From IMG/VR virus record IMGVR_UViG_2690316002_000017: a DNA stretch of 18,886 nucleotides; one strand, written 5' to 3'. Below, in pieces: positions 1,744 through 18,886 of the stretch (the stretch's first letter is position 1; the number at the start of each line of letters is the position of its first letter). The notes below the pieces were generated by a model. That model worked only from the letters and a program-made list of their open reading frames with translations, was not told the DNA's origin and made no database searches. This DNA comes from a virus. Taxonomy: Duplodnaviria > Heunggongvirae > Uroviricota > Caudoviricetes. A program made the translations under genes and the position numbers.

Positions 1744-1782
1744 CGTTTTCGTCCTGACAGTGTTTAATCATTTTTACCTGGC

Positions 1783-2075: not shown

Positions 2076-2318
2076 ACGCTTCGCCGCGTTCTCCAGTTCC
2101 TGACGCAGTGCCACCTGCGCCAGCTCGTTTTTGTCTGCCCTGGTGATGGCAACATGAAGCTGATTTTTCAGCATGGTGATGGTCGTCTGCTGTTCACTGG
2201 CGACGTTATTCGCCCTGTCCAGCGAGGCGCGCAGGCTGGCATTTTTGTGTTTCACCAGAAACAGACCGGTCACCGCCAGCGATAACAACACGACCAGCAC
2301 AATCATCAGCTTTGACAT
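2076..2318 (-). CDS. lysB: LysB (Rz-like spanin component), N-terminal part; 3' end lost in the N-run
   Basis: Internal ATG at 2318..2316 gives MSKLMIVLVVLLSLAVTGLFLVKHKNASLRASLDRANNVASEQQTT, a signal-anchor-like N-terminus. Overlaps the lysA 3' end as in P2. The reading frame continues into the Ns. Confidence 0.7.
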
Positions 2319-2731
2319 GGTTCCCGCCCCCCAAGACGCTGACGGCAGGCCGTACGTATCAGCCGGAAGAACACCGACGCCACGAGGTAAATCAGCGCGG
2401 TAAAAATCCACCCGGCAGCGACCAGCGAGATAAACGTCGCCACCATCACCACCAGAGCCGCCGCCCGTCTGCGCCACGGCACCGGCTGCAAAAACAGCGA
2501 CGCGACAATCTTCACGGCCAGCGATTCCGGCGGCAGCTCCCGCCCGTAGCGTTCCAGCACATACTCAGTGGCATACACGCCGACACCACCGGCAACCACA
2601 CAGATAACCGTCGCCAGAATCGCCCAGGCGGCAACAAAACTGACGGCCACGCTCTGCGGGTAAATCAGGGACAGTGCCAGCATCAGCGCCAGCGACACGT
2701 TCAGCATCAGTGAAAGGGATAATTTCTTCAT
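2306..2731 (-). CDS. lysA: LysA, membrane protein of the lysis cassette
   Basis: 141-aa hydrophobic ORF (multiple predicted transmembrane stretches) directly after the endolysin gene. ATG at 2731..2729 preceded by GGAG. Confidence 0.85.
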   Translation of the reverse strand: MKKLSLSLMLNVSLALMLALSLIYPQSVAVSFVAAWAILATVICVVAGGVGVYATEYVLERYGRELPPESLAVKIVASLFLQPVPWRRRAAALVVMVATFISLVAAGWIFTALIYLVASVFFRLIRTACRQRLGGREPCQS

Positions 2732-2745
2732 GGTGTTTACTCCGT

Positions 2746-3243
2746 TTAAGCCGGTACGCCGCCAGCGGTACGCCAGACGGTGACCAGTTTTTCCAGTGAA
2801 TGCTCACGCTGACCGTAACCGGCACCCGGCAGGGACGCCCAGATATTGCGACAGCGTGAAATGGCGCGCTCAATGCGTCCCGCCCGGATGTCATCCAGTG
2901 CACCGCGTTCGCGGATCAACTGAATGGCGAGTCTGTCCTGTGACAACGGACTGAAATCCGGCAGGGCAAGCTGTTTGCGGTAGTGCGGCCAGAACAGGTA
3001 AAGCTGCTGATAGCGACCGGAGGCCGTGGATTTTTCACCGCGACGGTTAAACACCTTCGCCGGTCGGCCATGCGCGAACGGGTGGTCACTGTAGTCAGTG
3101 AAAATTTCCGGCTTCCCGTCCAGTCCGGTGACTATCACGTCATAGCCCCGGTTTTTCGTCAGCGGATGATTCGCCGTCCCTTCGGACACGGCCAGCATGT
3201 CGAGAAAGGCCGCGATATTCTGATGCGTGTTAATTACCGGCAT
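2746..3243 (-). CDS. K: Endolysin (phage lysozyme) K
   Basis: 165-aa ORF starting MPVINTHQNIAAFLDMLAVSEGT, the size and position of P2 gpK. Start overlaps the holin stop by 1 nt. Confidence 0.9.
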   Translation of the reverse strand: MPVINTHQNIAAFLDMLAVSEGTANHPLTKNRGYDVIVTGLDGKPEIFTDYSDHPFAHGRPAKVFNRRGEKSTASGRYQQLYLFWPHYRKQLALPDFSPLSQDRLAIQLIRERGALDDIRAGRIERAISRCRNIWASLPGAGYGQREHSLEKLVTVWRTAGGVPA

Positions 3244-3524
3244 TACGGTTTCCCCCTGCCCTTAAAACGGCGCTGAATGGCAATCTCAATCACCTGATAA
3301 CCGGCGATACCCAGCATGGAGCCGATACCGCACACCGCAGGCAGTGACAGGTCAGGAAACTGCACCAGAACAACACCGGCAACCATCGAGACAAAACCAC
3401 CGAGCAACATGCGCCCGATAAACAGACGCGGGGTGATGGGTTCACCACCGGCAAGCACCTTGCCGACAACAATCAGCACCCCAATCATGAAAAGCGACAG
3501 GACGCTTTTTTCTTCTGCTGTCAT
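3243..3524 (-). CDS. Y: Holin Y
   Basis: 93-aa ORF with hydrophobic transmembrane segments and a charged C-terminus (RRFKGRGKP). Lies between X and K as in P2. Confidence 0.9.
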   Translation of the reverse strand: MTAEEKSVLSLFMIGVLIVVGKVLAGGEPITPRLFIGRMLLGGFVSMVAGVVLVQFPDLSLPAVCGIGSMLGIAGYQVIEIAIQRRFKGRGKP

Positions 3525-3527
3525 GCG

Positions 3528-3731
3528 TTACTCCCACAGATTGACAGTTTCAGCCACGGGCGCGGTCTGAACGTCGGGCAGTTCGACGGCGGTGCCGTGT
3601 GGCAGCACCGCACCCAGTTCAGCCAGTCCCGAATTTGCGGCGAGCACGGTCTCAACCACGCCTTCAGTGCGCCCGTAATACCGGACACAAATGGCGTCGA
3701 GCGTGTCGCCCTGTAGCGCAAAGGTCTTCAT
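3528..3731 (-). CDS. X: Tail protein X
   Basis: Internal ATG at 3731..3729 gives the 67-aa product MKTFALQGDTLDAICVRYYGRTEGVV..., matching P2 gpX as I recall it. That ATG overlaps the L stop (ATGA). The longer 90-aa ORF in the track would overlap L. Confidence 0.85.
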   Translation of the reverse strand: MKTFALQGDTLDAICVRYYGRTEGVVETVLAANSGLAELGAVLPHGTAVELPDVQTAPVAETVNLWE

Positions 3732-4237
3732 CAGATTTGACTCACGATGCAGCGCGGCTTGTCCTGGATACGCGCCACCGCCCAGCGCATATCCCGCCAC
3801 AGTTCATCAATGGTGCTGTCAATGCTGTCAGCCTTCTTGTCACCTTTCGCACTGGCATCCACGCCGCGATAACGCTCATAAAGCGACGCGGTCGCCATCG
3901 CACACACGGCGCGCTCGTAGTAAAAAACTTTGATGCTTTCACCGTCGATGTCGTCCGCCGGGACGTCCGCCAGACGCGTAAAACCGGCGGCAATTTTCTG
4001 TTCGCGGTACTCGTACAGCTCCGCATTCGTCTCCGCCATGCCTGACTTGATGGCCTCACGCAGACGGGCGGGGGCGACGGTCTGCTCAAGACGCATACGT
4101 TCCCGGACGCGCTTCGGGTCGATATCGGGAAAAAAGAACGTGTTTTTAATCACCGGCTCGTCGCCTGCCGGTTGCGGGATGACCACCGTACCCTCACCGG
4201 ACACGGGAGCCTCCTTTCGCGGAATAATCAGCGTCAT
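3731..4237 (-). CDS. L: Head completion / stabilization protein L
   Basis: Tandem ATG ATG at 4240..4235 preceded by GAGG. From the second ATG the product is 169 aa starting MTLIIPRKEAPVSGEGTVV, the length of P2 gpL. A start at 4240 is equally possible. Confidence 0.85.
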   Translation of the reverse strand: MTLIIPRKEAPVSGEGTVVIPQPAGDEPVIKNTFFFPDIDPKRVRERMRLEQTVAPARLREAIKSGMAETNAELYEYREQKIAAGFTRLADVPADDIDGESIKVFYYERAVCAMATASLYERYRGVDASAKGDKKADSIDSTIDELWRDMRWAVARIQDKPRCIVSQI

Positions 4238-4339
4238 CATGACTACCTCTGAAAAGTCGGGCGGTGGACGCCGGTGAAGTGTCAGGTGATTCACCCTCAC
4301 TGACCGGCGTGCCGCCCTGGCGCGGGGCGCATTCGGTTG

Positions 4340-5083
4340 TTAACTGGCTTTCTTTTTCGGGCGTCCACGTTTTGCCGGTGTCGCACTCCGGGTCTTACGC
4401 GGGGCGCGGGTGGCCGCTTTTGGCTGCGGCTCCGGCTTCGGTTTCAGCTCCCGCTCCAGTCGTTCAATCTCTTTTTTGACGCCTGCCTGACAGTCGAGCT
4501 GTGTCGCACGTTGCAGGTGAGCCAGCGCACCGGCGGCATCATCACCGTCACGCAGAAACAGACCGGTGATTTTGTGCAGCTTTGCGCGCACTTCATCAGG
4601 CATGTCTGCCGTGGCGGTCAGTTCAAGGGTTTCCGTCAGCAGGCGGGTATCCACAGATTCACCGGCAGCGTGGGCGCGCATGGCCGCAAGCGCTACCTCC
4701 TCGGTGAACATGTACGGCGGGGTACGGCGGTGTTTACCCGGCATGGTCAGACCGTACTTCAGGGCATAACGGGCAATCTCCAGCGCACCGGCAATATCGC
4801 CGGTATCCAGACGCCACAGCATGACCGTCATCAGAATGTCATCCTGTGCACCTTTGCCCTGCTCCAGCACGCCGTTCACCCACGGCAACCAGAACGGCAG
4901 CAGTTCGCGTTTTTTCGCGGCCTTCAGCTCTTTTGAATAAATCGCTTTCAGTGTGCGCTGGTCTGCGGCGAGCTTAACCAGCATCTGCTCATAGACAGTT
5001 GCATGTCGCAGCGGGGCGGCTTCCCGCTGCGCGGTCATCGCTGCCGAGACCCGCATCATGTGGCGCTGTGCGGGACTCGTCAT
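4340..5083 (-). CDS. M: Terminase small (endonuclease) subunit M
   Basis: 247-aa ORF with a basic C-terminus (PRKTRSATPAKRGRPKKKAS), the size and position of P2 gpM. ATG at 5083..5081. Confidence 0.9.
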   Translation of the reverse strand: MTSPAQRHMMRVSAAMTAQREAAPLRHATVYEQMLVKLAADQRTLKAIYSKELKAAKKRELLPFWLPWVNGVLEQGKGAQDDILMTVMLWRLDTGDIAGALEIARYALKYGLTMPGKHRRTPPYMFTEEVALAAMRAHAAGESVDTRLLTETLELTATADMPDEVRAKLHKITGLFLRDGDDAAGALAHLQRATQLDCQAGVKKEIERLERELKPKPEPQPKAATRAPRKTRSATPAKRGRPKKKAS

Positions 5084-5086
5084 CGG

Positions 5087-6160
5087 TTACGCTCCCGGCT
5101 CTGCGGTCGCTTTAGCCAGTGTGGAGAAATCACCGACCTTAATTTTTTCCACCAGACAACCGGCGGCGTAGTCTTCCACCACGTAATCAATGTTCATTGA
5201 CTCGTAGTTCTCCACGCGGTCGAGTTTCGGGTTTTCCTCAATCACGCGGCGATGGCTGTCATCCATGTAGTAGATGGACAGGTTTTCCAGCTTTGTGATG
5301 AGCATCGCATCCGCCGGGAAGTACGGGACGCGTACCGCTGGCAGGTTGCCGATGCGTTTCTGGCTGATGATGACGTCAGCAGCCAGCATTTCGCTGTTGT
5401 CCTGCTCCTTGTTGACGATGGGAAAATACTTGTCCGCCAGTAGCTGACGTCCCACAATCACCACAAGGTCAGGGTCTTCCTGATACCACGGCTCAATCAG
5501 GTTGTTGGTCGCATCCATCACCAGTGCGTCAAGGCTGGCATAATCACCGCCCTTACCCACGCGGATAACCTCAGAGGTGGTGCGCCCTTCCTCGTCAGTG
5601 ACCTTGCTCATCACGCGCGCCGGGGCTTCATTGCGGTATTTCTGCAGCCAGCCGACCGCCACATCCTGCAGCATCGGATTGCTGCTGCGGTCAGAGGTTT
5701 CGGCACGCCTCACGCCGTTAAAACCGGCCATGATTAAATCAAGGGACTGGCGTTTGATAATGGCGTTACGGACACGGAGCTGGAAATCCTGATAACGCGC
5801 CCACAGGTCCAGCGTTTTGTAGCGGATATAAAAATCGAAGTTAATCTGGTCGCATTCGTACTTGTTTGACGCCAGCTTCGAGAAGTCCTTCGGCTGACGC
5901 TCGGTGCCACCGGCGGTGTCGGTGGTGCTGGCGATGGAGCCGGTGACACCGATGCCAATTTTTTCCCCTTTCATTTCGCTGACCGGCACAATGTTGATGC
6001 GGGTCAGAAAGTCAGAGGACTCCTGCATGGTGTTCATCAGGGTCTGGGTGACCGACGGTTCAACGGTGAATTTTTTCGACACATCACCGGCGTCGATGCC
6101 GTTCAGTTCGGCAACACGGGACAGGTAGGCATTAAATTTAAAGCGGGTTTCCTGGCGCAT
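5087..6160 (-). CDS. N: Major capsid protein N
   Basis: 357-aa ORF starting MRQETRFKFNAYLSRVAELNG, the size and position of P2 gpN. ATG at 6160 preceded by AGGA. Confidence 0.95.
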   Translation of the reverse strand: MRQETRFKFNAYLSRVAELNGIDAGDVSKKFTVEPSVTQTLMNTMQESSDFLTRINIVPVSEMKGEKIGIGVTGSIASTTDTAGGTERQPKDFSKLASNKYECDQINFDFYIRYKTLDLWARYQDFQLRVRNAIIKRQSLDLIMAGFNGVRRAETSDRSSNPMLQDVAVGWLQKYRNEAPARVMSKVTDEEGRTTSEVIRVGKGGDYASLDALVMDATNNLIEPWYQEDPDLVVIVGRQLLADKYFPIVNKEQDNSEMLAADVIISQKRIGNLPAVRVPYFPADAMLITKLENLSIYYMDDSHRRVIEENPKLDRVENYESMNIDYVVEDYAAGCLVEKIKVGDFSTLAKATAEPGA

Positions 6161-6218
6161 AGTTTTTCCTGAAATTAAGGGTTAATCGTGAAGGTTTTCC
6201 CGGACTGACTGACGCCGG

Positions 6219-7073
6219 TCAGCAGTTCGTCATCAGGGCGTCACCGCCACCGCCGGTGGCTTTACTGCGGCGCTGCTGGGTCAGACTTTCGGTGTGGTCG
6301 AGACTGTTTTTCAGGCGGGTGAATGCCTGACTGGTTTCATCCGCCCTGTCAGTCACATCCTGCTTAAGTGCGGAAAAGGCGGTTTCCATCTCAGCAAGGC
6401 GCTGCTCAGTGGCGCTCAGTTTTTCCTGCACATGCTCAGCGACAGCGGTCACTGCTTCATGCACGTCATTCAGACGGGCGTCATCGCTGGCCTGTTTGCG
6501 GCCAAAAATGGATTTCACCTTTTCGGTCAGGGCTGTGAACACGGTTTCAGGCAGGTCTTCAAATTCCAGCTCAACAGGCGTTGCCACTGAAATCAGGTTT
6601 TCAGGGCTTAATTTGAAGCGGTTCAGAGGGTTGTGTTTTGCCGTGCGGCAGAATTCCAGGTATTCCGTGCCGAGGCTTGCCGGGTCATCGGTGACGGCCA
6701 GCCCCACCAGATAACATTTGCCGGTATTGGCAAAGTTCGGCTGAATTTCCATTGAGGTGTAGACCTTCTGCGCGGCCTTGTTCATCGCGATAAGGTCATC
6801 GGTCGGGGTGATTTTCGCAAACAGCGCCCATTTGCCTTTCAGCGCCGAATCATCGTCAATCTTTTCGGCCTTCAGTTCGACCACATCGCCATAACGCTTA
6901 AAAATACCGTCAGGCAGGATGCCGCGCAGATGTTCCAGGTTAATGCGGCAACCATAGACTCGCGGGTCAAAGGTTTCGGCCATTTCCTGAATATCCTGCG
7001 CACTGATGACACGCCCGTCACAGGTGTCACCCTCAACGCCGATACGAAAGAATTTTGAGACTTTTTTTGCCAT
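6219..7073 (-). CDS. O: Capsid scaffolding protein O
   Basis: Internal ATG at 7073..7071 gives a 284-aa product starting MAKKVSKFFRIGVEGDTCDGRVISAQDIQ, matching P2 gpO as I recall it. The track ORF begins 22 codons further upstream. Confidence 0.9.
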   Translation of the reverse strand: MAKKVSKFFRIGVEGDTCDGRVISAQDIQEMAETFDPRVYGCRINLEHLRGILPDGIFKRYGDVVELKAEKIDDDSALKGKWALFAKITPTDDLIAMNKAAQKVYTSMEIQPNFANTGKCYLVGLAVTDDPASLGTEYLEFCRTAKHNPLNRFKLSPENLISVATPVELEFEDLPETVFTALTEKVKSIFGRKQASDDARLNDVHEAVTAVAEHVQEKLSATEQRLAEMETAFSALKQDVTDRADETSQAFTRLKNSLDHTESLTQQRRSKATGGGGDALMTNC

Positions 7074-7246
7074 TGTCAGGAGTCCTGAATAGTGATTAGA
7101 GGAGTCACATGTCGGCATCAGTTTCCCGACGATGCGCATCCTCCGCCATCAGTCCCGGATGGCTTATCACTGACACAACAGCACCTTAGCGAATCGCGGG
7201 GCGCGACTCAGTAGCCTTGCCGTGTATTCATCACGGCGAGGTATTC
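7074..7246. promoter_or_regulatory. O-P divergent intergenic region; expected late promoters for the O and P operons
   Basis: 173-nt spacer between divergently oriented O (minus) and P (plus), as in P2. No exact TGT-N12-ACA box seen by eye, so the call rests on position only. Confidence 0.45.
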
Positions 7247-9019
7247 ATGACCATCACCACAGACACCACTCTTTTACACGACCCGCGTCGTCAGGCGGCG
7301 CTGCTGTACTGGCAGGGGTTTTCCGTGCCGCAGATTGCCGCCATGTTGCAGATGAAACGCCCGACGGTGCAGAGCTGGAAACAGCGCGACGGCTGGGACA
7401 GCGTTGCCCCCATCAGCCGTGTCGAAATGAGTCTGGAAGCGCGGCTGACCCAGCTCATCATCAAACCGCAGAAAACCGGTGGTGACTTCAAGGAAATTGA
7501 CCTGCTCGGACGCCAGATTGAACGACTGGCACGGGTAAACCGCTACAGTCAGACCGGCAACGAGGCAGACCTTAATCCGAACGTCGCTAACCGCAACAAA
7601 GGCGGGCGTCGCAAACCGAAAAAGAATTTTTTCAGTGACGAGGCCATCGAAAAGCTGGAGCAGATTTTCTTTGAGCAGTCTTTCGACTATCAGTTGCACT
7701 GGTATCGCGCCGGGCTTGAGCACCGCATCCGCGATATCCTGAAATCCCGCCAGATTGGCGCGACGTTTTATTTTTCCCGCGAGGCGCTGCTGCGTGCCCT
7801 GAAAACCGGTCATAACCAGATTTTTCTGTCGGCCAGTAAAACGCAGGCGTATGTGTTCCGCGAATACATCATCGCCTTTGCCCGTCTGGTTGACGTTGAC
7901 CTGACCGGTGACCCGATTGTCCTGGGCAATAACGGCGCAAAACTGATTTTTCTCGGCACCAACTCCAACACCGCGCAGAGTCATAACGGCGACCTGTACG
8001 TCGATGAGATTTTCTGGATCCCGAATTTTCAGATACTGCGTAAGGTGGCATCAGGTATGGCCTCACAGAGTCACCTGCGCTCGACCTATTTCTCCACCCC
8101 GTCCACGCTGGCGCACGACGCCTACCCGTTCTGGTCGGGTGAACTGTTTAACCGGGGACGCGCCAGTGCCGCCGAACGCGTGGAAATCGACGTCAGTCAT
8201 AACGCCCTTGCCGGTGGGCTTCTCTGTGCGGACGGCCAGTGGCGACAGATTGTCACCATTGAGGACGCCCTGAAAGGCGGCTGCACGCTGTTCGACATTG
8301 AGCAGCTCAAACGCGAAAACAGCGCCGACGATTTTAAAAACCTGTTCATGTGTGAATTTGTTGACGACAAGGCATCGGTGTTCCCGTTCGAGGAGCTGCA
8401 ACGCTGCATGGTCGACACGCTGGAAGAATGGGAAGACTATGCGCCGTTTGCCGCCAATCCGTTCGGCTCCCGCCCGGTATGGATTGGTTACGACCCGTCA
8501 CACCGTGGCGACAGCGCCGGATGCGTGGTACTGGCACCGCCGGTGGTGGCCGGTGGCAAATTCAGAATACTTGAGCGTCACCAGTGGAAAGGTATGGACT
8601 TTGCCACCCAGGCGGAATCCATCCGCAAACTCACCGAAAAATATAACGTCGAATACATCGGTATTGATGCCACCGGCCTCGGTGTCGGCGTGTTCCAGCT
8701 CGTGCGCTCGTTCTATCCCGCCGCGCGCGATATCCGCTACACGCCGGAAATGAAAACCGCAATGGTGCTCAAGGCAAAAGACGTTATCCGTCGTGGCTGT
8801 CTGGAATATGACGTCAGCGCCACCGACATCACCAGCTCGTTTATGGCTATCCGCAAGAGCATGACCAGCAGCGGACGCAGCGCCACCTATGAGGCCAGCC
8901 GCAGCGAGGAAGCCAGCCACGCCGACCTCGCATGGGCGACCATGCACGCCCTGTTAAATGAGCCACTCACCGCCGGTATCAGCACACCGCTGACATCCAC
9001 CATTCTGGAGTTTTACTGA
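7247..9019 (+). CDS. P: Terminase large (ATPase) subunit P
   Basis: ATG at 7247 preceded by GGCGAGG gives a 590-aa product starting MTITTDTTLLHDPRRQAALLYWQGFSVPQIAAMLQ, the size of P2 gpP. The track ORF starts 10 codons earlier. Confidence 0.95.
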   Translation: MTITTDTTLLHDPRRQAALLYWQGFSVPQIAAMLQMKRPTVQSWKQRDGWDSVAPISRVEMSLEARLTQLIIKPQKTGGDFKEIDLLGRQIERLARVNRYSQTGNEADLNPNVANRNKGGRRKPKKNFFSDEAIEKLEQIFFEQSFDYQLHWYRAGLEHRIRDILKSRQIGATFYFSREALLRALKTGHNQIFLSASKTQAYVFREYIIAFARLVDVDLTGDPIVLGNNGAKLIFLGTNSNTAQSHNGDLYVDEIFWIPNFQILRKVASGMASQSHLRSTYFSTPSTLAHDAYPFWSGELFNRGRASAAERVEIDVSHNALAGGLLCADGQWRQIVTIEDALKGGCTLFDIEQLKRENSADDFKNLFMCEFVDDKASVFPFEELQRCMVDTLEEWEDYAPFAANPFGSRPVWIGYDPSHRGDSAGCVVLAPPVVAGGKFRILERHQWKGMDFATQAESIRKLTEKYNVEYIGIDATGLGVGVFQLVRSFYPAARDIRYTPEMKTAMVLKAKDVIRRGCLEYDVSATDITSSFMAIRKSMTSSGRSATYEASRSEEASHADLAWATMHALLNEPLTAGISTPLTSTILEFY

Positions 9020-10053
9020 TGAGCAAGAAAAAAGGGAAAACACCGCAACCTGCGGCAAAAAAAATGACCGCCAGCGCCCCGAAAATGGAGGCATTCACCT
9101 TTGGTGAGCCGGTGCCGGTACTCGACCGCCGTGACATTCTGGATTACGTCGAGTGCATCAGTAACGGCAGATGGTATGAGCCACCGGTCAGCTTTACCGG
9201 TCTGGCAAAAAGCCTGCGTGCTGCCGTGCATCACAGCTCCCCGATTTACGTCAAACGCAATATTCTGGCCTCGACATTTATCCCGCATCCGTGGCTTTCC
9301 CAGCAGGATTTCAGCCGCTTTGCGCTGGATTTTCTGGTGTTCGGTAATGCGTTTCTGGAAAAGCGTTACAGCACCACCGGTAAGGTCATCAGACTGGAAA
9401 CCTCACCGGCAAAATATACCCGCCGTGGCGTGGAGGAGGATGTTTACTGGTGGGTGCCGTCCTTCAACGAGCCGACACCTTTCACGCCCGGCTCCGTGTT
9501 TCATCTGCTGGAGCCGGATATTAATCAGGAGCTGTACGGCATGCCGGAATATCTCAGCGCCCTTAACTCTGCCTGGCTGAATGAGTCAGCCACGCTGTTC
9601 CGCCGCAAGTATTACGAAAACGGCGCACATGCCGGATACATCATGTACGTCACTGATGCCGTGCAGGATCGCAACGATATCGAAATGCTTCGCGAAAACA
9701 TGGTCAAGTCGAAAGGCCGCAACAACTTTAAAAATCTGTTTCTCTATGCCCCGCAGGGAAAAGCCGACGGCATTAAAATTATCCCGCTCAGTGAAGTGGC
9801 AACGAAGGACGATTTTTTTAATATCAAAAAAGCCAGCGCCGCTGACCTGCTGGACGCGCACCGCATCCCCTTTCAGTTGATGGGCGGCAAGCCGGAGAAC
9901 GTCGGGTCGCTGGGTGATATTGAGAAAGTGGCAAAGGTCTTTGTCCGCAATGAGCTTATCCCGTTACAGGACAGGATCCGCGAGATAAACGGCTGGCTCG
10001 GTCAGGAGGTCATCCGCTTTAAAAACTACTCACTGGACACTGACAACGGCTGA
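9019..10053 (+). CDS. Q: Portal vertex protein Q
   Basis: 344-aa ORF starting MSKKKGKTPQPAAKKMTASAPKMEAFTFGEPVPVL, the size and position of P2 gpQ. Start overlaps the P stop (TGATG). Confidence 0.95.
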   Translation: MSKKKGKTPQPAAKKMTASAPKMEAFTFGEPVPVLDRRDILDYVECISNGRWYEPPVSFTGLAKSLRAAVHHSSPIYVKRNILASTFIPHPWLSQQDFSRFALDFLVFGNAFLEKRYSTTGKVIRLETSPAKYTRRGVEEDVYWWVPSFNEPTPFTPGSVFHLLEPDINQELYGMPEYLSALNSAWLNESATLFRRKYYENGAHAGYIMYVTDAVQDRNDIEMLRENMVKSKGRNNFKNLFLYAPQGKADGIKIIPLSEVATKDDFFNIKKASAADLLDAHRIPFQLMGGKPENVGSLGDIEKVAKVFVRNELIPLQDRIREINGWLGQEVIRFKNYSLDTDNG

Positions 10054-10058
10054 ACATC

Positions 10059-10080
10059 GCCGCCTGCGGGCGGCTTTTTT
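10059..10080 (+). terminator. Rho-independent terminator after Q
   Basis: GCCGCC-TGCG-GGCGGC hairpin followed by TTTTTT, six nt after the Q stop codon. Confidence 0.6.
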
Positions 10081-10217
10081 ACACCCCGCCATCACGCCCT
10101 CACACGCTCACCACCGCACAAAACATCCCGCAGACAACGCCCCGGCTAACAATCTAAACGCCATCACGACGCGCTCAGACGCTGAAAAAATAAAATCAGC
10201 ACCACCGCCAGCGCGCA

Positions 10218-10236
10218 GTGCTATCCCCGCCTCGCC
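10218..10236 (-). other. Putative cos site (19-nt cohesive-end sequence)
   Basis: Reverse complement of 10218..10236 is GGCGAGGCGGGGATAGCAC. From memory the P2 cohesive end is GGCGAGGCGGGGAAAGCAC, which gives a single mismatch. It lies next to Q where P2 cos is expected. Confidence 0.55.
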
Positions 10237-10353
10237 CGCCCGCTTAATGGGGCGGTTTTAATGCGGGTGCATAACCACTTCTTACCCACATCAATTCTGG
10301 TCAAGCCAAGCAGTACAGCTTATGATTTCAAGATGCAAACTCATGCAGCAATG

Positions 10354-11547
10354 TTAAATTCTGCATCCATCGGTTTGAAAATGTGATCCGTTTTTCGAAT
10401 TCAAACTCAACTCTGTTTGACTCTTTTGAACATTAATAGTTTTACCAGTAAGGACATCCAAAACCCCTGCAGCAACAGCCTGCGCCAATTTACAAGGCAC
10501 AGCATTCCCTATCTGACGCCAAATTGACGAATTTTTCCCCACAAAGACATAATTACTCGGGAATGTTTGAATCAAAAGAGCCTCATCTATCGTTAGTCGA
10601 CGTAAACGACTAGGTACATCGTGCATATCTTTTGGCTCACCACCATTCATTAGATGATTATGATAAGTCTCAACATAACTTGTTGAGCCATCATAAAGGT
10701 GTTCTTCATCAATAATTGGTGTCCTATTCCCCCCCATAGAAGCAGCTATAGTTGAAGCATACCCATTCGGGTTAATTGGTCTTCCCTGCCCGTTAAACAT
10801 CATTCCCGCGTAAGGTGACTTCCGTAATACTGGCTTAGCAGCATTTGTAATCCTTGCATTACAGACTCTTGAATTGTTTGGATTACCCGCTCGCCCTAAA
10901 GGCCGAATAATCTCACCAACTGTGGGCGAAAGATATTGGTATTTTTTTATCGCCGCCTCAACTCGTTTCACATCATTTTCGGAACGAAACCCTATAAAAA
11001 ACATACGTTCCCTATTCTGAGGAACGCCAAAATCTTTAGAATTCAGCACCAGCAAGGCTGAACGATAGCCTGACTTTTCAGCCATCTTAAACAGTTCACA
11101 CCTAACTGGTTCAAATTTGGACAACTGTGCTAAAGCCTTAACATTCTCCATAACAAAGCATTCTGGTTGAATTATATCCACCGCCCGCATGAATGACATA
11201 ACCAGCTTACTACGTGGATCATGAGCGTCCATTTTCCCTGCCACAGAAAATCCTTGGCATGGAGGCCCACCAAAAACACAACCTATATTTTTCAGCCCAG
11301 ACAATTCACTTAGCATCTCATCAATATCACCACAAAAAACAGGTGATTCATGATTAAGCTTAAATGTATCACATGCATCCTTATCTATATCATTGGCCCA
11401 AACTGTTCGGAACCCGGCATTAGAGAAACCGACATCCATCCCTCCTGCCCCAGTAAATAAGCTCACCGCTGAAATTTTGTTCACTTCTTTAGCACCAATT
11501 ATTCGATTTTGGAATAAAACCAATGATAGGTAAGGATCGACACACAA
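10354..11547 (-). CDS. DNA (cytosine-5)-methyltransferase
   Basis: Canonical C5-MTase motifs in order: FTGAGGMDVGF (motif I, AdoMet), GGPPCQGFSVAGK (motif IV, catalytic Cys; nt about 11247-11270), ENV (VI), QNRERMFFIGF (VIII), GNAVPCKLAQAVA (X). The track ORF starts at a TTG (11547). A GTG at 11484 (product MNKISAVSLFTGAGG...) is a plausible true start. AT-rich by eye. Confidence 0.85.
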   Translation of the reverse strand: MCVDPYLSLVLFQNRIIGAKEVNKISAVSLFTGAGGMDVGFSNAGFRTVWANDIDKDACDTFKLNHESPVFCGDIDEMLSELSGLKNIGCVFGGPPCQGFSVAGKMDAHDPRSKLVMSFMRAVDIIQPECFVMENVKALAQLSKFEPVRCELFKMAEKSGYRSALLVLNSKDFGVPQNRERMFFIGFRSENDVKRVEAAIKKYQYLSPTVGEIIRPLGRAGNPNNSRVCNARITNAAKPVLRKSPYAGMMFNGQGRPINPNGYASTIAASMGGNRTPIIDEEHLYDGSTSYVETYHNHLMNGGEPKDMHDVPSRLRRLTIDEALLIQTFPSNYVFVGKNSSIWRQIGNAVPCKLAQAVAAGVLDVLTGKTINVQKSQTELSLNSKNGSHFQTDGCRI

Positions 11548-11837
11548 TCAATCACCTTCTAAACCACATGGCAAAACGACAACCAACTATACATGATCAT
11601 AGATACAGGTGCCTAGTCCAGCTTCTCACCAAACTACGCAAAGAAGCTTCTCTTTCGCAGTCAGAATTGGCCATTTTTCTAGGATTATCACAATCAGATA
11701 TATCTAAAATCGAAAGCTTTGAAAGGCGATTAGATGCTTTAGAACTATTTGAATTATTAGAGGTGGTTGCAAGCCGATTAGGTCTACCAATGGATATCTT
11801 ACTAAAGGACACCTATGAAAGTATTAGTAAATCATGA
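11523..11837 (+). CDS. Small helix-turn-helix protein, candidate R-M controller (C protein)
   Basis: 104 aa with an XRE-like HTH (LSQSELAIFLGLSQSDISKIESFERRLDALELFELL). Divergent from the methyltransferase and directly upstream of the nuclease-like gene. An alternative start at ATG 11568 would give 89 aa. No strong Shine-Dalgarno at either. Confidence 0.6.
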   Translation: MIGKDRHTINHLLNHMAKRQPTIHDHRYRCLVQLLTKLRKEASLSQSELAIFLGLSQSDISKIESFERRLDALELFELLEVVASRLGLPMDILLKDTYESISKS

Positions 11838-12161
11838 GCAAGCCTATAATGCAATTATAAATGCAATCAACGATGCAAAAAATTAACTGATTACAAAACA
11901 AATAATCAATGGGTCTCCATTCAAAATGTAATTTTAGGCACCCACCTTACATACAGATATATACTTATTACTGGTTTACTTGCAAAAGCAACAGACCCTA
12001 GAGTAAACCCTCTGGCTTTACAAGCTAATGCCCCCGTAGACGGAGCCTATGATGCAAGAAGTTTATGTCATTCGGTAATAGTAGGCAAAGTAGAAGGCCC
12101 ATTTTTAGAGGGTAAGTTAGGCGCATCAAATGAGCCATTTCTAAATAAACCTGCTCGTTAC

Positions 12162-12869
12162 ATGCTCCACTCCTCTGATAACCCTGTGCGCAGAGGAAAT
12201 GATAAGGTTTTACAACAACTTTCAATTGATATATTACATGCAGCAACAACCCAAACCTTAGCTTATGAAATGCTTGTTATTGCATTATATTTTACCCTAC
12301 AGCGAACCAATAGAGTTATAACGCCGAACTCAATTAATTTTGATTTTCATAAGATTATTTATAATATTATATCTCATCCTTGTGATGGAGAAACATGCGC
12401 GATTGCTGCCGCAATTTCGTTACATTTATTAGGTGAACAAAGAGGATGGATAATAAAAGCACATCCCGTCAATCAGGCCGGTAGCTCCTCAAAAGAGATA
12501 CTGGACATAGATGTATATCATGACGATATAGTTTTCCTTTCTATAGAAGTGAAAGACAAACCATTTAATTATCAAGATGTTAATCACGCCGTTTCAAAAG
12601 CATCTGCATCCGGGATTTCAAAAGTTATCTTCCTTAAAGGGCCAAGAGCAACAAACTTAGATATTGATGAGTCTCTTGCGATTGAGAACGCTGCGACAAA
12701 AGGTATTTCACTAAGCTTTAGTGACGTCATGACATTCACAACAACATGTTATGCGTTATCGCCACTATTAAGTAATGACAGAATAATAGATTTCATAAAT
12801 AACACTTTAAAAGACATCAGAGCTAAAGATAGCACTATAGAATACATACAATCCATATTTAAAAATTAA
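12162..12869 (+). CDS. PD-(D/E)xK nuclease-like protein, candidate Type II restriction endonuclease; 5' end uncertain
   Basis: 235 aa from the first ATG. Contains LDIDVYHDDIVFLSIEVKDK (nt 12501-12560), with an acidic residue at the end of one predicted strand and a hydrophobic run ending in E-V-K. No Shine-Dalgarno before ATG 12162, and the frame is open for 104 codons upstream (see findings). Confidence 0.55.
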   Translation: MLHSSDNPVRRGNDKVLQQLSIDILHAATTQTLAYEMLVIALYFTLQRTNRVITPNSINFDFHKIIYNIISHPCDGETCAIAAAISLHLLGEQRGWIIKAHPVNQAGSSSKEILDIDVYHDDIVFLSIEVKDKPFNYQDVNHAVSKASASGISKVIFLKGPRATNLDIDESLAIENAATKGISLSFSDVMTFTTTCYALSPLLSNDRIIDFINNTLKDIRAKDSTIEYIQSIFKN

Positions 12870-12875
12870 TACTCC

Positions 12876-12912
12876 CGGGACAATATAGTTCACAACTACG
12901 TTGTCCCTTTTA
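12876..12912 (+). terminator. Candidate terminator hairpin between the convergent nuclease gene and gene A
   Basis: GGGACAA ... TTGTCCC inverted repeat followed by TTTTA, just after the nuclease stop (12867-12869). The loop is long (about 17 nt), so this is weak. Confidence 0.3.
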
Positions 12913-12962
12913 AAACAGTCAAGCAATTGCATTATATTAATTATTTACTTTTTATCACAATC

Positions 12963-15271
12963 TCATAATTCATACGCTCTCCAATCACATATAACAGGAT
13001 AACTGAAGCTTCTCCCGTCGTAATTTACAGTTGCCCCACGCGCCAGCGCCTCAAGCTCCCATCGCTGCGGCCTGATACCGTTCTGAGCAAGGTCAACGCG
13101 GATAAGGGTGATTTGCAATCGTTCAGACCTGGTCAGTCTGGCCGATGGTGCTATTTCATGCGGTTTTAACGGGCTTCCGTTTCTTTGCTGACGGTTTGGT
13201 GTTATCAGGTCGTGTTTTAATGCGCCCCTGAGCGCCCTCACGACCTCCGGGTCATTCCATTCGATAACACCGTCATCAACCAGATTAAGCACTGCTGCGG
13301 CGTGTTCAGAAGGTGTGGGAGCCGGTAACGAAGTATCACCACTGGTGAGCTTTCCACAGTTATTGACAGGACTCCGAGGCGCGGCGATGCCGCTTTTTAA
13401 AGTCAAAGGCTCAACGACCGGAACTTTCGGCACAATGCGCCAGTCCGTCGTTCTGGTGATATGAATATGACGCGCGCCGAGATGCGGCGCGTAAATGCCG
13501 ACCACTCTCTCGACTTCTTCCTCGTACTCGTTAACGTCATCCNNNNNNNNNNNNNNNNNNNNNNNNNNNNNNNNNNNNNNNNNNNNNNNNNNNNNNNNNN
13601 NNNNNNNNNNNNNNNNNNNNNNNNNNNNNNNNNNNNNNNNNNNNNNNNNNNNNNNNNNNNNNNNNNNNNNNNNNNNNNNNNNNNNNNNNNNNNNNNNNNN
13701 NNNNNNNNNNNNNNNNNNNNNNNNNNNNNNNNNNNNNNNNNNNNNNNNNNNNNNNNNNNNNNNNNNNNNNNNNNNNNNNNNNNNNNNNNNNNNNNNNNNN
13801 NNNNNNNNNNNNNNNNNNNNNNNNNNNNNNNNNNNNNNNNNNNNNNNNNNNNNNNNNNNNNNNNNNNNNGCTGCCCATCCAGTGCATAGCCGTCGATATT
13901 TTTTGAGATGTATTTCGCGATATACCCCGCAGCACCGCCCCGATTAAGATGTTTTGCCTGAAAACGGTTTCGCGCGGCTCCTCTTTCGTCGCCATCCTCT
14001 TTGAGCGCATAGCGACGCATGATTTCGATAATCTGGTTACGCTGGCGTGGATTACAAAAAAGCATCATATGCCAGTGCGGCGTTCCGTCGTGGTGTGGCT
14101 CGACGACTCGCAAACCGTAGACCTGTAAATCATTATCCTTGAATGCCGTGCGCATCAGGCTCCAGATACGGCAGAGATAACGCTGCGCATCCTTTGGATT
14201 AAATGCCTCATCATTCCAGCCGTGATTAAGCTGGACGGTTTTATTTTCGCCTTTTCCAACCTGACGTGTCGGGTGATACTTTGACGGCGCGGTAAGCGTG
14301 ATAAACATCCCCACATCACCCTCTGCGGCGGCGTAACGCTCAATACCGGCAATGGTGTTCATCAGCTCCATCCGGCGAATTTCAGGATTAGAAATACTGC
14401 CCATCACCTTACTGATAAGGTCGATGCGCTCGCCGGTTTCCCTGTTTTCAAGGTCACACGATTTAAGAAATTCCAGATTTGCCTGGCGGCGCGCACGCAC
14501 ATCACGAATGGCATGTTTACTGGCATAAGGAGAACGGTCTTTATTGACCTCCCCGACAGCTATCAGTAACGCCTCATGCCAGCGCATACGCTGGCCTTTA
14601 AGCTGATGAGTCCACCACTCATCGTTAAACAGGCGGGCAATGGCAGAATATGCCTGCCTCGTGGTCATCTGTCCTTTACGGTATTTTTTCCAGTAGAGCG
14701 GGGAAATATTGAAAGCACGTGCAGCGCCAGCAACATGACCATAGAGGTGAGCCTGCGCCTCATCCGTAAACAGCGATTCTTTTTCGCCATGTGCATCAAC
14801 CCAGGCATCGCAGAGTTCCTCATACATCATGAAAAGCTGCGATGAGATACGGGCAGCAAACTTTTTCAGCTCCTTGTCATTCATTCCCGGCAGGCGCGCA
14901 TAGTGGTCACGCTCTGCCAGAAACAGCAACGACGCGTCGGTGTTCATTTCATGGCGCTGATTCACACGCTCAATGCGCGGCCATAAACGACGCTGAAAAG
15001 TGGATGTGAGGAAATAAAACCCGTGCACCGGGCTTTTATTGCGCCGGATGTAGTCATAGCGTGAAGTAAACAGCGAGCGCAAAAAGTAAGGCAGGCGGTT
15101 AATCGTGGATAAAACACCTTGCACCTGATGCATCTCGTCACGTGTAAGGGGTCTTTCGCGCCCGACGGCCTCGCGTGGCGCGTTCCATGCATAAGCACCG
15201 GTAAACGCCTTACCGGTGCCTGCAGCAAATGCTGACGGAGGGACAAAACGCCCGGAGGCTTTAACGGCCAT
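12963..15271 (-). CDS. A: Replication initiation protein A (rolling-circle initiator), interrupted by an N-run
   Basis: ATG at 15271 gives MAVKASGRFVPPSAFAAGTGKAFTGAYAWNAPREA. Upstream of the gap are HHDGTPHWHMMLF and the active-site-like GYIAKYISKNIDGYALDGQ. After the gap the C-terminal part (DDVNEYEEEVERVVGIYAPHLGARHIHI...YPVICDWRAYEL) continues in a different frame relative to the Ns. Track ORFs 13403..15313 and 12963..13505 are the two pieces. Confidence 0.9.
13543..13869. other. Run of 327 N inside gene A (gap or mask; length not frame-consistent)
   Basis: Directly visible. The A frame before and after the run differ, so the run length does not equal the missing sequence length modulo 3. 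Confidence 1.
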
Positions 15272-15536
15272 ATGAGCCAAAAGCCTCTGAACAACGCCTG
15301 CTGAGTTGCTCAACCTGCGCGTTTAAATCAGCAAAAGATTTTGCGCTTCCGGTCAGAATATCGTGATGCATCAGGCCGGAAACGAGCTGGCTTAATTTCG
15401 GATAATAACCAACCACCGCCAGCCATTCCTGACCGGCGTTTTTACCGCTTTCCGCTCTCTTTTTCTCGTGGAGAATAAACTGAAAGCTGTCACTGGTAAC
15501 GACATAACGTTCGCCAATTTCAATACGAATACTCAT
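15261..15536 (-). CDS. Hypothetical early-operon protein just upstream of A
   Basis: 91-aa ORF with ATG at 15536 overlapping the stop of the upstream zinc-finger gene. Its 3' end overlaps the A start by 11 nt. Position corresponds to the small orfs preceding A in P2. Confidence 0.6.
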   Translation of the reverse strand: MSIRIEIGERYVVTSDSFQFILHEKKRAESGKNAGQEWLAVVGYYPKLSQLVSGLMHHDILTGSAKSFADLNAQVEQLSRRCSEAFGSYGR

Positions 15537-16847: not shown

Positions 16848-17080
16848 TTCCAGACCCTCCGGCTTTTCAGAAAGGTCAGAGCCTTTTTTAACGGACTCTG
16901 TTTTTTGGTACGGATAATGATTCCCTTGCGCCCCTTCCCGTGGGTGATGGTGAAGTCAATCGCCCTGGGGCTTTCGTTACGCAATAACTGAGCAATACAA
17001 CGAGGCTCGTTCATCCTTTCCACCTTAAGCCGCACGGCCATGTCTTGATTTGCTGTAACTAATGCGATTTTTCCAGTCAT
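16844..17080 (-). CDS. Hypothetical small protein between the Cox-like gene and B
   Basis: Track ORF 16844..17104 overlaps the Cox-like gene by 80 nt. Internal ATG at 17080 gives 78 aa (MTGKIALVTANQDMAVRLKV...), the size of the P2 orf in this slot. Start is uncertain. Confidence 0.45.
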   Translation of the reverse strand: MTGKIALVTANQDMAVRLKVERMNEPRCIAQLLRNESPRAIDFTITHGKGRKGIIIRTKKQSPLKKALTFLKSRRVWK

Positions 17081-17381
17081 GCCATTCTGTCGGAGCTTCA
17101 TCAACTAGCTGGGCTGCGTACTTGTCCCACTCACGACGATTAATCCATAACTCAGCATGACCGCCCGGCTTTAATGGGTCCGTCATATAAAAGGCTGGTA
17201 ACTTGCCTGCTTTCGCCATTTCAGCAACAGCACGAGGCGTCTTACCGATGTAAAGAGCAAAACCCTCTTTCGAGAGCAAATCCGACGGTGCGGCTGCAAG
17301 TTTGATGTCACATTTTTTACTTTTTGTGAGATCAGATACTTTTTCTCCAACATCGTTATTCATTTCTGATCCAATACTCAT
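17025..17381 (-). CDS. Cox-like HTH protein (excision/immunity-switch regulator candidate)
   Basis: ATG at 17381 preceded by GAGGA gives about 118 aa. The segment FALYIGKTPRAVAEMAKAGKLPAFYMTDP resembles the P2 Cox core as I recall it. Divergent from the C repressor gene. The track ORF starts at TTG 17411. Confidence 0.6.
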   Translation of the reverse strand: MSIGSEMNNDVGEKVSDLTKSKKCDIKLAAAPSDLLSKEGFALYIGKTPRAVAEMAKAGKLPAFYMTDPLKPGGHAELWINRREWDKYAAQLVDEAPTEWHDWKNRISYSKSRHGRAA

Positions 17382-17485
17382 TTTGATATCCTCAACTTTG
17401 GTGCCATTCAATCAGAGCTATTTGAAGCCGCTCTGCGTTGTTCTGGCGTGTCGCATACAACATAAATTACGAGATACGACAATTC
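17382..17485. promoter_or_regulatory. Immunity switch region between the divergent Cox-like and C genes (expected Pe/Pc promoters and operators)
   Basis: 104-nt spacer between divergent regulator genes, as in the P2 transcriptional switch. A short direct repeat TACGA-GA-TACGA lies just upstream of the C start. Operators are not defined. Confidence 0.45.
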
Positions 17486-17797
17486 ATGTCAAATACACAA
17501 ATCACATCTCAAGCAGAGAAACTCGCACTTATTCGGGAATCAGAAAGAATGACAAGGAAGCAAGTTGCTGAATTAACTGGAATTAACTACAACACCTATG
17601 CTGGATATGAGCAGGGAAAAGTAAAGATGTCTTTTGACGCAGGTATGAAATTTTTCAAGCCAGAAAGATTTCGCAAGTACCGTGACTGGTTCATGTTTGA
17701 TGAAACTGATCCCGCTGGCGGACAAATAGCCCCGGCGCTCGCGCACATTGGGCAAGACTCAACAACCTTGCACCACTCAGACCAAAAGACTGGCTGA
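17486..17797 (+). CDS. C: Immunity repressor C
   Basis: ATG at 17486 gives 103 aa with the HTH MTRKQVAELTGINYNTYAGYEQGK and C-terminal GQIAPALAHIGQ...SDQKTG, resembling the P2 C repressor C-terminus as I recall it. Directly upstream of int, as in P2. Confidence 0.8.
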   Translation: MSNTQITSQAEKLALIRESERMTRKQVAELTGINYNTYAGYEQGKVKMSFDAGMKFFKPERFRKYRDWFMFDETDPAGGQIAPALAHIGQDSTTLHHSDQKTG

Positions 17798-17890
17798 CGA
17801 TTTATTCAGCATATGTGTGCAGTAAATGTACGAAAGAAAATTGCATTAATTTTCAAGTAGTAGAAGTAAACAGCGTCATCGGAGGGCTTT

Positions 17891-18886
17891 ATGTCTATTA
17901 AAAAGCTCGATGATGGTCGTTATGAAGTGGACGTCAGACCGCAGGGTGCAGATGGAAAACGTATCAGGCGGAAATTTAAAACTAAAGGTGAAGCTCAAGC
18001 ATTCGAACGTCATGTCCTGGTTAACTACCACAACAAAGAGTGGTTGGAGAAGCCGGCCGACCGCCGAACTCTTACAGAGTTGTTAGGCAGATGGTGGATA
18101 TATCACGGAAAATCACATGAGCGTGGAGATATTGAACGAGGGCGTTTGACGACAATAATCGCCAAATTTGCCGAGATGGGAGTGTCCAGGGCGGACCAGC
18201 TAACAAAGAAAACGATAACTGATTATCGCGTTGTAATGATGAACGATGGCCTAAAACCAGCCAGCGTAAATCGGCATCTGGCAATAATGAGCGGGATGTT
18301 CACCAAGTTAATTGACGCCGGTGAATATCACTCTCACAACCCGTTCCGTGAGGTTAAGCGGTTACGTGAAGCTGTTACGGAAATGGCTTTTTTGTCCAGT
18401 GAAGAGATTACGCGGCTGTTATCCATGCTTGATGGTGATGAGTTAAATGCAACTCTGGTCTGCCTTTCTACTGGTGGACGCTGGAGTGAAGTGTCTAATT
18501 TGAAAGCTGAACACATCATTAACCAGATGGTTACGTTTATGAAAACTAAAAACGGAAAGCGCAGGACAATTCCCGTTTCGCAGGACCTGATTAAACGGAT
18601 CAAGACCAAAAATTCAGGCAGGCTTTTTAATGCCAGTTACTACAAAGTGCGCAACGCTCTCAGGGAAGTAAAACCCGATTTACCTGACGGACAGGCAGTG
18701 CATGTTTTGAGGCATACATTTGCCACACATTTTATAATGAATGGAGGTAACATAATCACATTGCAGCGCATCCTGGGTCATTCTAACATTCAGCAAACTA
18801 TGACCTACGCACACTTTGCACCGGATTTCTTACAAGATGCTGTGACTCTTAACCCGGTGTCAGGAATGTCCATAATGCGTCCATAA
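17891..18886 (+). CDS. int: Tyrosine integrase (site-specific recombinase)
   Basis: 331-aa ORF starting MSIKKLDDGRYEVDVRPQGADGKRIRRKF, like P2 Int. GGAGGG before the ATG. C-terminal catalytic signature (VLRHTFATHF ... LGHSNIQQTMTYAHF). Stop codon is the last three bases of the window. Confidence 0.95.
   Translation: MSIKKLDDGRYEVDVRPQGADGKRIRRKFKTKGEAQAFERHVLVNYHNKEWLEKPADRRTLTELLGRWWIYHGKSHERGDIERGRLTTIIAKFAEMGVSRADQLTKKTITDYRVVMMNDGLKPASVNRHLAIMSGMFTKLIDAGEYHSHNPFREVKRLREAVTEMAFLSSEEITRLLSMLDGDELNATLVCLSTGGRWSEVSNLKAEHIINQMVTFMKTKNGKRRTIPVSQDLIKRIKTKNSGRLFNASYYKVRNALREVKPDLPDGQAVHVLRHTFATHFIMNGGNIITLQRILGHSNIQQTMTYAHFAPDFLQDAVTLNPVSGMSIMRP

Follow-up and report, generated by a model that had tools for sequence, protein, structure and literature searches.

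The AT-rich block at 10265-12993 of the window (the whole 18,886-nt stretch of DNA that was analysed) is, with a probability of roughly 0.85, a copy of the EcoT38I Type II restriction-modification (R-M) cassette in the Q-A slot of a P2-like prophage, with a frameshifted endonuclease gene (R); therefore the copy most likely methylates DNA without restricting it. Judged from its three protein sequences, the system is EcoT38I, already described and not new, and Kita et al. 2003 (J Bacteriol 185:2296) link EcoT38I in their title to P2 prophages and transfer by P2 phage. Thus there is little new biology here: the link to P2 was published in 2003, two of the three proteins have crystal structures, and surveys of the Q-A hotspot already extend to thousands of genomes. 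The copy is, however, a concrete defence pseudogene in a P2 hotspot, and shows how orphan methylases can arise by R-M decay.

Homology to P2 (~98% by blastn) covered 6740-10264, with P, Q and cos, and picked up again at 12994, within the last codons of gene A. Given these two breakpoints, the 2.7-kb block between them stands in for P2 30274-33546, i.e., the 3' end of A, orf91, tin and old. GC content of the block was 0.384, versus 0.555 in the left flank and 0.494 in the right flank. The left landmark of the slot is a P2-type 19-nt cohesive end (cos) at 10218-10236 in reverse orientation: P2 cos, GGCGAGGCGGGGAAAGCAC, when reverse-complemented, matches GTGCTATCCCCGCCTCGCC at all but one position (18/19). 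Lying between the portal gene Q with cos and the replication gene A, with old/tin replaced, the block belongs to the Q-A (cos-proximal) defence hotspot of P2-like phages catalogued by Rousset et al. 2022 (PMC9122126); moreover, the cassette was flanked by a portal gene and a replication endonuclease gene in three annotated E. coli copies, in Serratia and in Ewingella. R-M systems were earlier reported in P2/P4-type hotspots (PMC9122126; EcoO109I on P4-like satellites, Kita 1999). The sequence-only reading had described an AT-rich block in a known variable hotspot for anti-phage cargo, between cos and gene A and with orf91/tin/old absent; all of this holds, and the end of A is replaced as well.

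The cassette shares with old/tin of P2 the cos-adjacent gpQ-gpA slot and the character of AT-rich, swappable anti-phage cargo, but its mechanism would be restriction plus modification, whereas that of old/tin is abortive infection or exclusion. Compared with the usual cargo of P2 hotspots, the present copy stands apart as a defence pseudogene, a class reported to be rare there by a 2026 survey (PMC13586616). Of 5426 complete E. coli genomes, 20 contained the cassette, which was seen only in bacterial chromosomes; a megablast search of the INPHARED phage collection with the block returned no match, and neither did an Rfam scan of the window.

On the minus strand of the block, ecoT38IM (10354-11484) encodes an intact m5C DNA methyltransferase (M) of 376 aa, starting at GTG 11484. 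The protein matched PF00145 (1.4e-66), TIGR00675 (6.6e-59) and PADLOC MTase_II (2e-79), and motifs I, IV, VI, VIII and X of C5 methyltransferases can be read in its translation (FTGAGG, GPPCQGFS, ENV within ENVKAL, QNRER and GNAVP, respectively). It was identical at 363/363 residues to UniProt Q83VT0 (363 aa), an entry filed under Peduovirus P2, from which the present ORF differs in being 13 codons longer at its 3' end. GTG 11484 was favoured as the start because it agrees with Q83VT0 and with GGG codons 12 and 15, which an entry in PMC6456624 lists for the EcoT38I methyltransferase; on the same grounds a start at TTG 11547 (397 aa) was dropped.

On the plus strand, ecoT38IC (11568-11837) encodes an intact 89-aa HTH_3 controller (C) protein (HTH_3, 1.8e-6; PADLOC Control_protein, 2e-4), residues 6-89 of which were 84/84 identical to PDB 2EF8. 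Its start was placed at 11568 because indels at 11531-11567 in orthologous cassettes are not multiples of three, which also ruled out ATG 11523 (104 aa, the PGAP start), a codon absent in Serratia. The likely limits of M and C given here differ from the longest ORFs in both cases. Downstream, ecoT38IR (11815-12869, plus strand), a SacI-family Type II endonuclease gene of 351 codons when intact, begins at ATG 11815 and overlaps the end of C (11837) by 23 nt. When one A was restored, its product was 349/351 identical to the EcoT38I endonuclease (PDB 7E8R/7EDB), the differences being V13A and V298I, and E. coli relatives carry a 351-aa "restriction endonuclease, SacI family" annotation at this position.

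Taken against EcoT38I of E. coli TH38, which resides on (defective) P2 prophages, M and C are identical and R is 99.4% identical, the gene order is the same, M is divergent and C overlaps R by the same 23 nt. On the other hand, the present R departs from the deposited sequence by a 1-nt deletion (A7 to A6) in addition to the two substitutions. The start codons of M and R are separated by 330 nt (11485-11814), which reportedly agrees with the published spacing of EcoT38I. The methyltransferase on the minus strand and the small HTH protein on the plus strand were correctly recognized from the letters alone, and so was their PvuII-type, controller-regulated Type II layout with M divergent from C-R.

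The lesion lies at 11877-11882 (plus strand), where alignment showed an A6 tract in the window versus A7 in three E. coli relatives. As a result of this 1-nt deletion, R is stopped by TAA 11884-11886 after 23 codons, and the 351-aa frame of EcoT38I is broken into a 23-codon 5' ORF and a 235-codon 3' ORF. The latter (12162-12869, plus strand) comprises the 3' two-thirds of R with a putative D231/D233...E245-x-K247 catalytic motif; scanned in its unrepaired form, it spanned positions 115-276 of the 276 in the RE_SacI profile at 112 bits (cut-off 19.3) and positions 117-351 of the 351 in PADLOC REase_II PDLC03473. The 351-aa form of R carries a precomputed PF09566 assignment and agrees with EcoT38I along its whole length, and no NCBIfam model matched R. 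The SacI family (PF09566), whose full-length relatives match the Pfam model, has >1400 members, often paired with a divergent m5C methyltransferase; its distant members (~42% identity, e.g., L014) are without a C gene, unlike EcoT38I.

The 235-aa ORF had been read as a nuclease gene set apart from the HTH gene by a 325-nt gap. The ORF is only the last two-thirds of a gene, and what had been taken for a gap is the first third of R. That the ORF is an active nuclease in its own right was rejected, since it has no Shine-Dalgarno sequence upstream and since 29 of the 54 family-invariant residues, including the block L102-R115, belong to the 116 aa that it lacks. Annotation from ORFs, or a defence finder, would here return a short "SacI family" nuclease or overlook the R-M system altogether, whereas the truth is a frameshifted R beside an intact M and C.

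Restriction would be low or switchable, with methylation on, if the frameshift were leaky or reversible, via -1 frameshifting or transcriptional slippage at A_AAA_AAT or via A6<->A7 reversion; we regard this as improbable. The deletion does create an in-frame X_XXY_YYZ heptamer, A_AAA_AAT (11877-11883), with the stop directly after it, and the tract is the only homopolymer of at least 6 nt in R. A -1 shift at the heptamer rejoins the R frame exactly, as K23N, and might thereby yield traces of the complete enzyme. However, i) both an upstream Shine-Dalgarno-like stimulator and a downstream structure are absent (MFE -7.9 kcal/mol, z = -0.38), and programmed frameshifting was dropped for want of a stimulatory element; ii) A7 is not conserved in orthologues, with A5 in Enterobacter and Pseudescherichia and no tract in Serratia, which argues against selection for a mutable tract, and a selected phase-variable tract was dropped on this ground; iii) A6/A7 is short for classical phase variation; iv) the allele is rare. 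It is thus quite doubtful that A7/A6 at codons 22-23 serves to switch or leak restriction while methylation stays constant, although, were it so, a prophage of E. coli would carry a Type II R-M system subject to phase variation.

The opposite possibility, that the cassette is fully functional EcoT38I and A6 a sequencing or assembly error, is quite improbable as well. The window is a draft, interrupted by N runs at 1783-2075 and 13543-13869, in which a homopolymer miscall is conceivable; homopolymer indels occur in other assemblies of the cassette, where M is frameshifted (C7->C6 in FORC_082, A4->A3 in NCTC9088); and the 351-aa form of R is far commoner than the truncated one (~986 contigs versus 2). 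Yet the read sets SRR1186599 and ERR124657, assembled independently by Logan, both gave A6 together with the private V298I, and two NCBI accessions carry precisely this 235-aa product. A run of 6-7 nt is also rather short to be miscalled systematically in short reads. The present R copy also has two private amino-acid changes. Moreover one of the two assemblies with A6, L004, diverges from the window right of 13870, and therefore represents a different prophage mosaic. Because two independent sets of reads share A6, the deletion is probably genuine.

The sequence-only reading had left it undecided whether the trio is a known system or a new specificity, and the identities (R 349/351, C 84/84, M 363/363) decide for the former, EcoT38I, and against the latter. 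That the trio has a novel specificity, or is a novel R-M system merely resembling the SacI family, is extremely improbable: the two departures from the PDB EcoT38I sequence (V13A and V298I) and the presence in Pfam RE_SacI of enzymes with other specificities might hint at this, but R is 99.4% identical, no residue differs between M and the methylase deposited for the EcoT38I locus (363 aa compared) or between C and 2EF8, and neither V13 nor V298 falls in a conserved column.

Under the EcoT38I reading with a broken R, the working of the cassette can be proposed as follows. In intact copies, a dimeric HTH C protein would bind a palindromic operator between M and C, thereby delaying and then sustaining C-R transcription while holding M down; M would methylate the recognition site and R would cut unmethylated sites, so that incoming DNA carrying the site would be restricted. 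In the present copy, the A7 to A6 deletion would halt translation of R after 23 codons, and the locus would represent an R-M system in decay, its M and C left orphaned. The protein identities, the place in the prophage, the frameshift with its recurrence and the conservation of the operator are observed, while this regulatory logic and the loss of restriction with continued methylation are inferred; only the methylase and the regulator probably still work here. A functional Type II R-M system comprises both an active endonuclease and an active methyltransferase, and the endonuclease is truncated in this copy. The module had been proposed to protect the lysogen against superinfection and to act as an addiction module; both roles need an intact endonuclease, and with R frameshifted at codon 23 neither is supported for this copy. 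As for the alternative that M is a solitary antirestriction methylase, it fits the gene content (M and C intact, R dead) but not in the sense of a dedicated design, the state of the locus being one of R-M decay.

Comparison of the M-C intergenic region among seven cassettes from seven genera left a single invariant block, a palindrome at 11499-11517 (TTATTC-GATTTTG-GAATAA; no strand), which lies upstream of both genes, 14 nt from the start codon of M and 50 nt from that of C. Two symmetric compensatory variants were seen in the same comparison (ATATTC..GAATAT and ATATGC..GCATAT), and we predict the palindrome to be the C-box operator. C.EcoT38I is one of the C proteins from REBASE for which an upstream site has been predicted, and a predicted site for it is reportedly given in the supplement of Sorokin 2008. 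A second conserved element, a 32-nt block at 11586-11617 inside the C coding region, was invariant at 31 of 32 columns among six Enterobacterales cassettes, although their R proteins were only 57-74% identical to EcoT38I. On the minus strand it reads as a promoter-like TAGGCA-18 nt-TATAGT pointing at M, suggesting that it may be the M promoter. When a leaderless C promoter or a second operator was sought upstream of 11568, no convincing conserved -10 element was found. The comparative footprint yields an operator and an M-promoter prediction for C.EcoT38I, a protein whose structure (2EF8) is at hand.

The C protein of EcoT38I is reported (Kita et al. 2003) to activate R and to modulate expression of M. 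In PvuII-type systems (C.PvuII, C.AhdI, C.BclI and C.Esp1396I) M is likewise divergent from a C-R operon, a small HTH_3 C gene likewise overlaps R, and a palindromic operator likewise lies upstream of C. However, C.EcoT38I showed only distant similarity to C.BclI and C.AhdI (E 0.015-0.05), and the operator predicted for it consists of one 6-7-6 palindrome (TTATTC-N7-GAATAA), whereas PvuII-like systems have a 35-bp double C-box with a central GTG.

SacI recognises GAGCTC, while the site of EcoT38I is degenerate; it is reported (REBASE; Kita et al. 2003) to be G(A/G)GC(T/C)^C, i.e., GRGCYC, and a literature search on GRGCYC found no paper tying it to EcoT38I. On this presumed site, GRGCYC was counted 0 times in the window and 0 times in the whole P2 genome (33.6 kb), so that neither sequence offers M a site to protect, a point that bears on the solitary-methylase alternative. 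If its absence from P2 reflected selection, a notion that we hold to be highly doubtful and that is separate from any switching of R, the system could be carried without risk to the phage's own DNA, and sibling P2-like phages would be invisible to it. The genome of lambda, by the same presumed motif, contains seven sites.

The P2 gene order was kept, but inverted, across the window: P (terminase, 7217-9019) and Q (portal, 9019-10053) point rightward toward cos (P2 cos at 10218-10236, one mismatch), and replication gene A with the early operon occupied the minus strand from 12963 onward. In blastn against the circularised P2 genome, 6740-10264 was 97.9% identical and the sequence from 12994 rightward 95-98% identical, and 10265-12993 between the two breakpoints had no P2 counterpart, replacing P2 30274-33546 (the last codons of A, orf91, tin and old). 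GC content was 0.384 in 10265-12993 versus 0.555 and 0.494 in the flanks. Thus the lower GC, the missing P2 counterpart and the replaced P2 segment bear out the AT-rich foreign block in the tin/old slot described by the sequence-only reading, which was also right in kind in proposing a C-regulated Type II restriction-modification (R-M) system in a P2 hotspot: P2-like prophages have a catalogued anti-phage cargo hotspot in the gpQ-gpA slot (PMC9122126), and the cassette is, by sequence identity, EcoT38I. Two N runs were also present in the window (1783-2075 and 13543-13869), the second of which places 327 N within gene A where both P2 and L004, a Logan contig of SRR1186599, have 289 nt. The seeming split of gene A into two frames there (ORFs 13403-15313 and 12963-13505) is a gap artefact, because the A gene of L004 is intact (756 aa).

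All three components of EcoT38I were recognized, so that the question left open before, whether the trio was a system already in REBASE or one of new specificity, can be answered: it is a known and already published one, judged by identities of 363/363 for the methyltransferase (M), 84/84 for the controller (C) and 349/351 for the endonuclease (R). The C5-cytosine methyltransferase ORF (10354-11547, minus) matched PF00145 (1.4e-66), TIGR00675 (6.6e-59) and PADLOC MTase_II (2e-79); all catalytic motifs were present, and from GTG 11484 the product was identical throughout to the cytosine methyltransferase that UniProt lists under Peduovirus P2 (Q83VT0). The small HTH_3 protein (ORF 11523-11837, plus), with weak hits to PADLOC "control protein" models, had an intact reading frame and residues 6-89 identical to PDB 2EF8. 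Both gene calls of the sequence-only reading stand. The intact E. coli R was identical at 350 of 351 positions to PDB 7E8R/7EDB ("EcoT38I restriction endonuclease"), and the repaired window R differed from it only by V13A and V298I. EcoT38I reportedly (Kita, 2003) recognizes G(A/G)GC(T/C)^C and has M and R genes arranged head-to-head 330 nt apart, with the C gene within this spacer and overlapping R, and C is said to control R positively and M negatively; the M-R spacer of the window (11485-11814) is likewise exactly 330 nt. The GTG start of M agrees with the rare codons tabulated for EcoT38I, GGG for codons 12 and 15 of the MTase and AUA for codon 15 of the REase (PMC6456624). At its 3' end (10354-10392), the M ORF of the window and of E. 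coli genomes has 13 extra C-terminal codons (...LNSKNGSHFQTDGCRI), as compared with Q83VT0, which ends in ...LNS.

The 235-aa ORF (12162-12869), previously taken as a nuclease gene of its own, proved to be a fragment. It matched Pfam RE_SacI at profile positions 115-276 of 276 only, and one PADLOC REase_II model (549 bits) at positions 117-351 of 351 only, which indicates that it is the C-terminal two-thirds of a 351-aa enzyme. Three-frame translation of 11800-12300 traced the missing part: translation from ATG 11815 gives MKVLVNHEQAYNAIINAINDAKN before ending at TAA 11884, and the reading frame used by the 235-aa ORF has no stop from ~11850 on, continuing as ...KKLTDYKTNNQWVSIQNVILGTHLTYRYIL. 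The same block was found at ≥99.7% identity in three E. coli chromosomes (Res13-Lact-PEB08-01, FORC_082 and NCTC9088), where the A6 of the window (11877-11882) is A7. Restoring one A yields a 351-codon R gene from 11815, its first 23 nt shared with the end of the HTH gene.

Several lines of evidence bear on whether the deletion is real: i) sequences identical to the 235-aa product, with its private V298I, occurred under two NCBI accessions (E. coli 3-073-06_S1_C1 being the source of one) and on independently assembled contigs from SRR1186599 and ERR124657; ii) both of these assemblies have A6; iii) A6 was found in none of the three aligned complete-genome copies, and the other 17 block matches had lengths (2727 nt for a 2726-nt query) consistent with A7; iv) the intact 351-aa form of R was present on about 986 contigs. 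Given this recurrence in independent records and A7 elsewhere, we regard the deletion as a mutation that is very probably genuine, rare and inherited. The SRR1186599 contig was 100% identical to the window over 2162-13542 (11.4 kb), R frameshift included. Rightward of the gap in A it had 20 mismatches over 3.1 kb, and it showed no similarity after 17014 (window 17015-18886 versus L004 14816-16663), in the immunity and integrase region, where the window carries a different Cox-like gene (17025-17411), an HTH repressor-like gene (17438-17797) and an integrase gene (17891-18886). Such identity followed by divergence places the R-minus allele in no fewer than two prophage mosaics; P2-like prophages are evidently mosaic, and the allele has moved between backgrounds.

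Aligning 25 family members placed 29 of their 54 invariant residues within the first 116 residues of R, and the lost part includes the invariant block L102-G103-S105-N106-E107-P108-L110-N111-K112-P113-A114-R115, directly ahead of the initiating Met of the 235-aa ORF; D231/D233, E245 and K247, the putative PD...ExK residues, are in the retained part. No ribosome-binding site preceded ATG 12162. The deletion also makes an in-frame slippery heptamer, A_AAA_AAT, followed by the stop, where slipping by -1 would bring translation back into the R frame; however, neither a Shine-Dalgarno-like element upstream nor a downstream structure (z = -0.38) was found to favour this rescue. Orthologues do not conserve the A tract. 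With invariant residues missing, no ribosome-binding site at 12162 and the -1 rescue unsupported, restriction is most likely lost in the window copy, for which the proposed roles of the module in protecting the lysogen and in addiction do not hold.

Taking GRGCYC as the EcoT38I site, we found none in the window (18.9 kb; 15.4 ± 3.6 expected from shuffles), in the complete P2 genome (1-33593, 33.6 kb; 14-20 expected, Markov) or in a 186-like prophage segment (17 kb; 7.5-11, Markov), two in E. coli core genes (33 kb; 14-16, Markov) and seven in phage lambda (about 20 expected). CYCGRG was similarly rare and other degenerate GC-rich palindromes were not depleted; the scarcity looks like a species-wide palindrome avoidance. 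With this presumed site, an intact EcoT38I would restrict lambda-like phages and not P2-like relatives, which suggests that little is forfeited against site-free phages when R is lost. That the carrier phage itself lacks any site needing protection argues against M as a self-protective antirestriction methylase.

C.EcoT38I is among the REBASE controller proteins for which an upstream binding site has been predicted (PMC2632904). When the M-C intergenic regions of the window and of orthologous cassettes from six other genera were aligned, one element was invariant, the palindrome TTATTC-GATTTTG-GAATAA (11499-11517), located 14 nt upstream of the start of M. It varies in a symmetric, compensatory manner (ATATTC..GAATAT in Yersinia, Serratia and Ewingella; ATATGC..GCATAT in Pseudoalteromonas), the pattern expected for a dimeric HTH protein, and is our predicted operator. 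The likely start of C is ATG 11568 (89 aa), because indels between 11531 and 11567 are not multiples of three. Inside C, a 32-nt stretch (11586-11617, ACTATACATGATCATAGATACAGGTGCCTAGT, with a GATC site) was nearly invariant in nucleotides among six Enterobacterales cassettes and not conserved in the Pseudoalteromonas cassette, and the codons around it vary. Its minus-strand reading, TAGGCA-18 nt-TATAGT, is promoter-like and aimed at M, and we predict it to be the M promoter. M would thus be transcribed from inside C across the operator, and operator-bound C would drive C-R and at once throttle M. The non-trivial residue of the analysis is only this testable operator prediction and the rarity of the pseudogene, defence pseudogenes in P2 hotspots being reported as rare (PMC13586616).

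The cassettes from the six genera (R proteins 52-74% identical to EcoT38I) show M-C-R moving as a three-gene unit. Those of Serratia and Ewingella occupy the P2 Q-A slot as in the window. Four lie outside it: the Yersinia aldovae cassette (L010 4575-7053) is beside ogr and tail genes (tail gene D), at the opposite end of a P2-like element, and the other three are in non-phage islands: those of Enterobacter and Pseudescherichia have no phage genes nearby (neighbours PIN-domain genes and Tae4/yegS, respectively), and that of Pseudoalteromonas adjoins a resolvase gene. In a 42%-identical relative, M and R are present and C is absent. In Res13-Lact-PEB08-01 (NZ_CP062865.1, locus 71-3812), an IS66-family element (ISCro1) interrupts the portal gene beside an intact EcoT38I cassette; this P2 prophage, although defective, retains its R-M system, as the title of Kita's 2003 paper describes for TH38 strains. 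M was frameshifted in a homopolymer, with R intact, in FORC_082 (4118-5310, C7 to C6) and NCTC9088 (4157-5202, A4 to A3). These are probably assembly indels, because an M-broken, R-intact genotype should be lethal; if they are real, R is silent in both.
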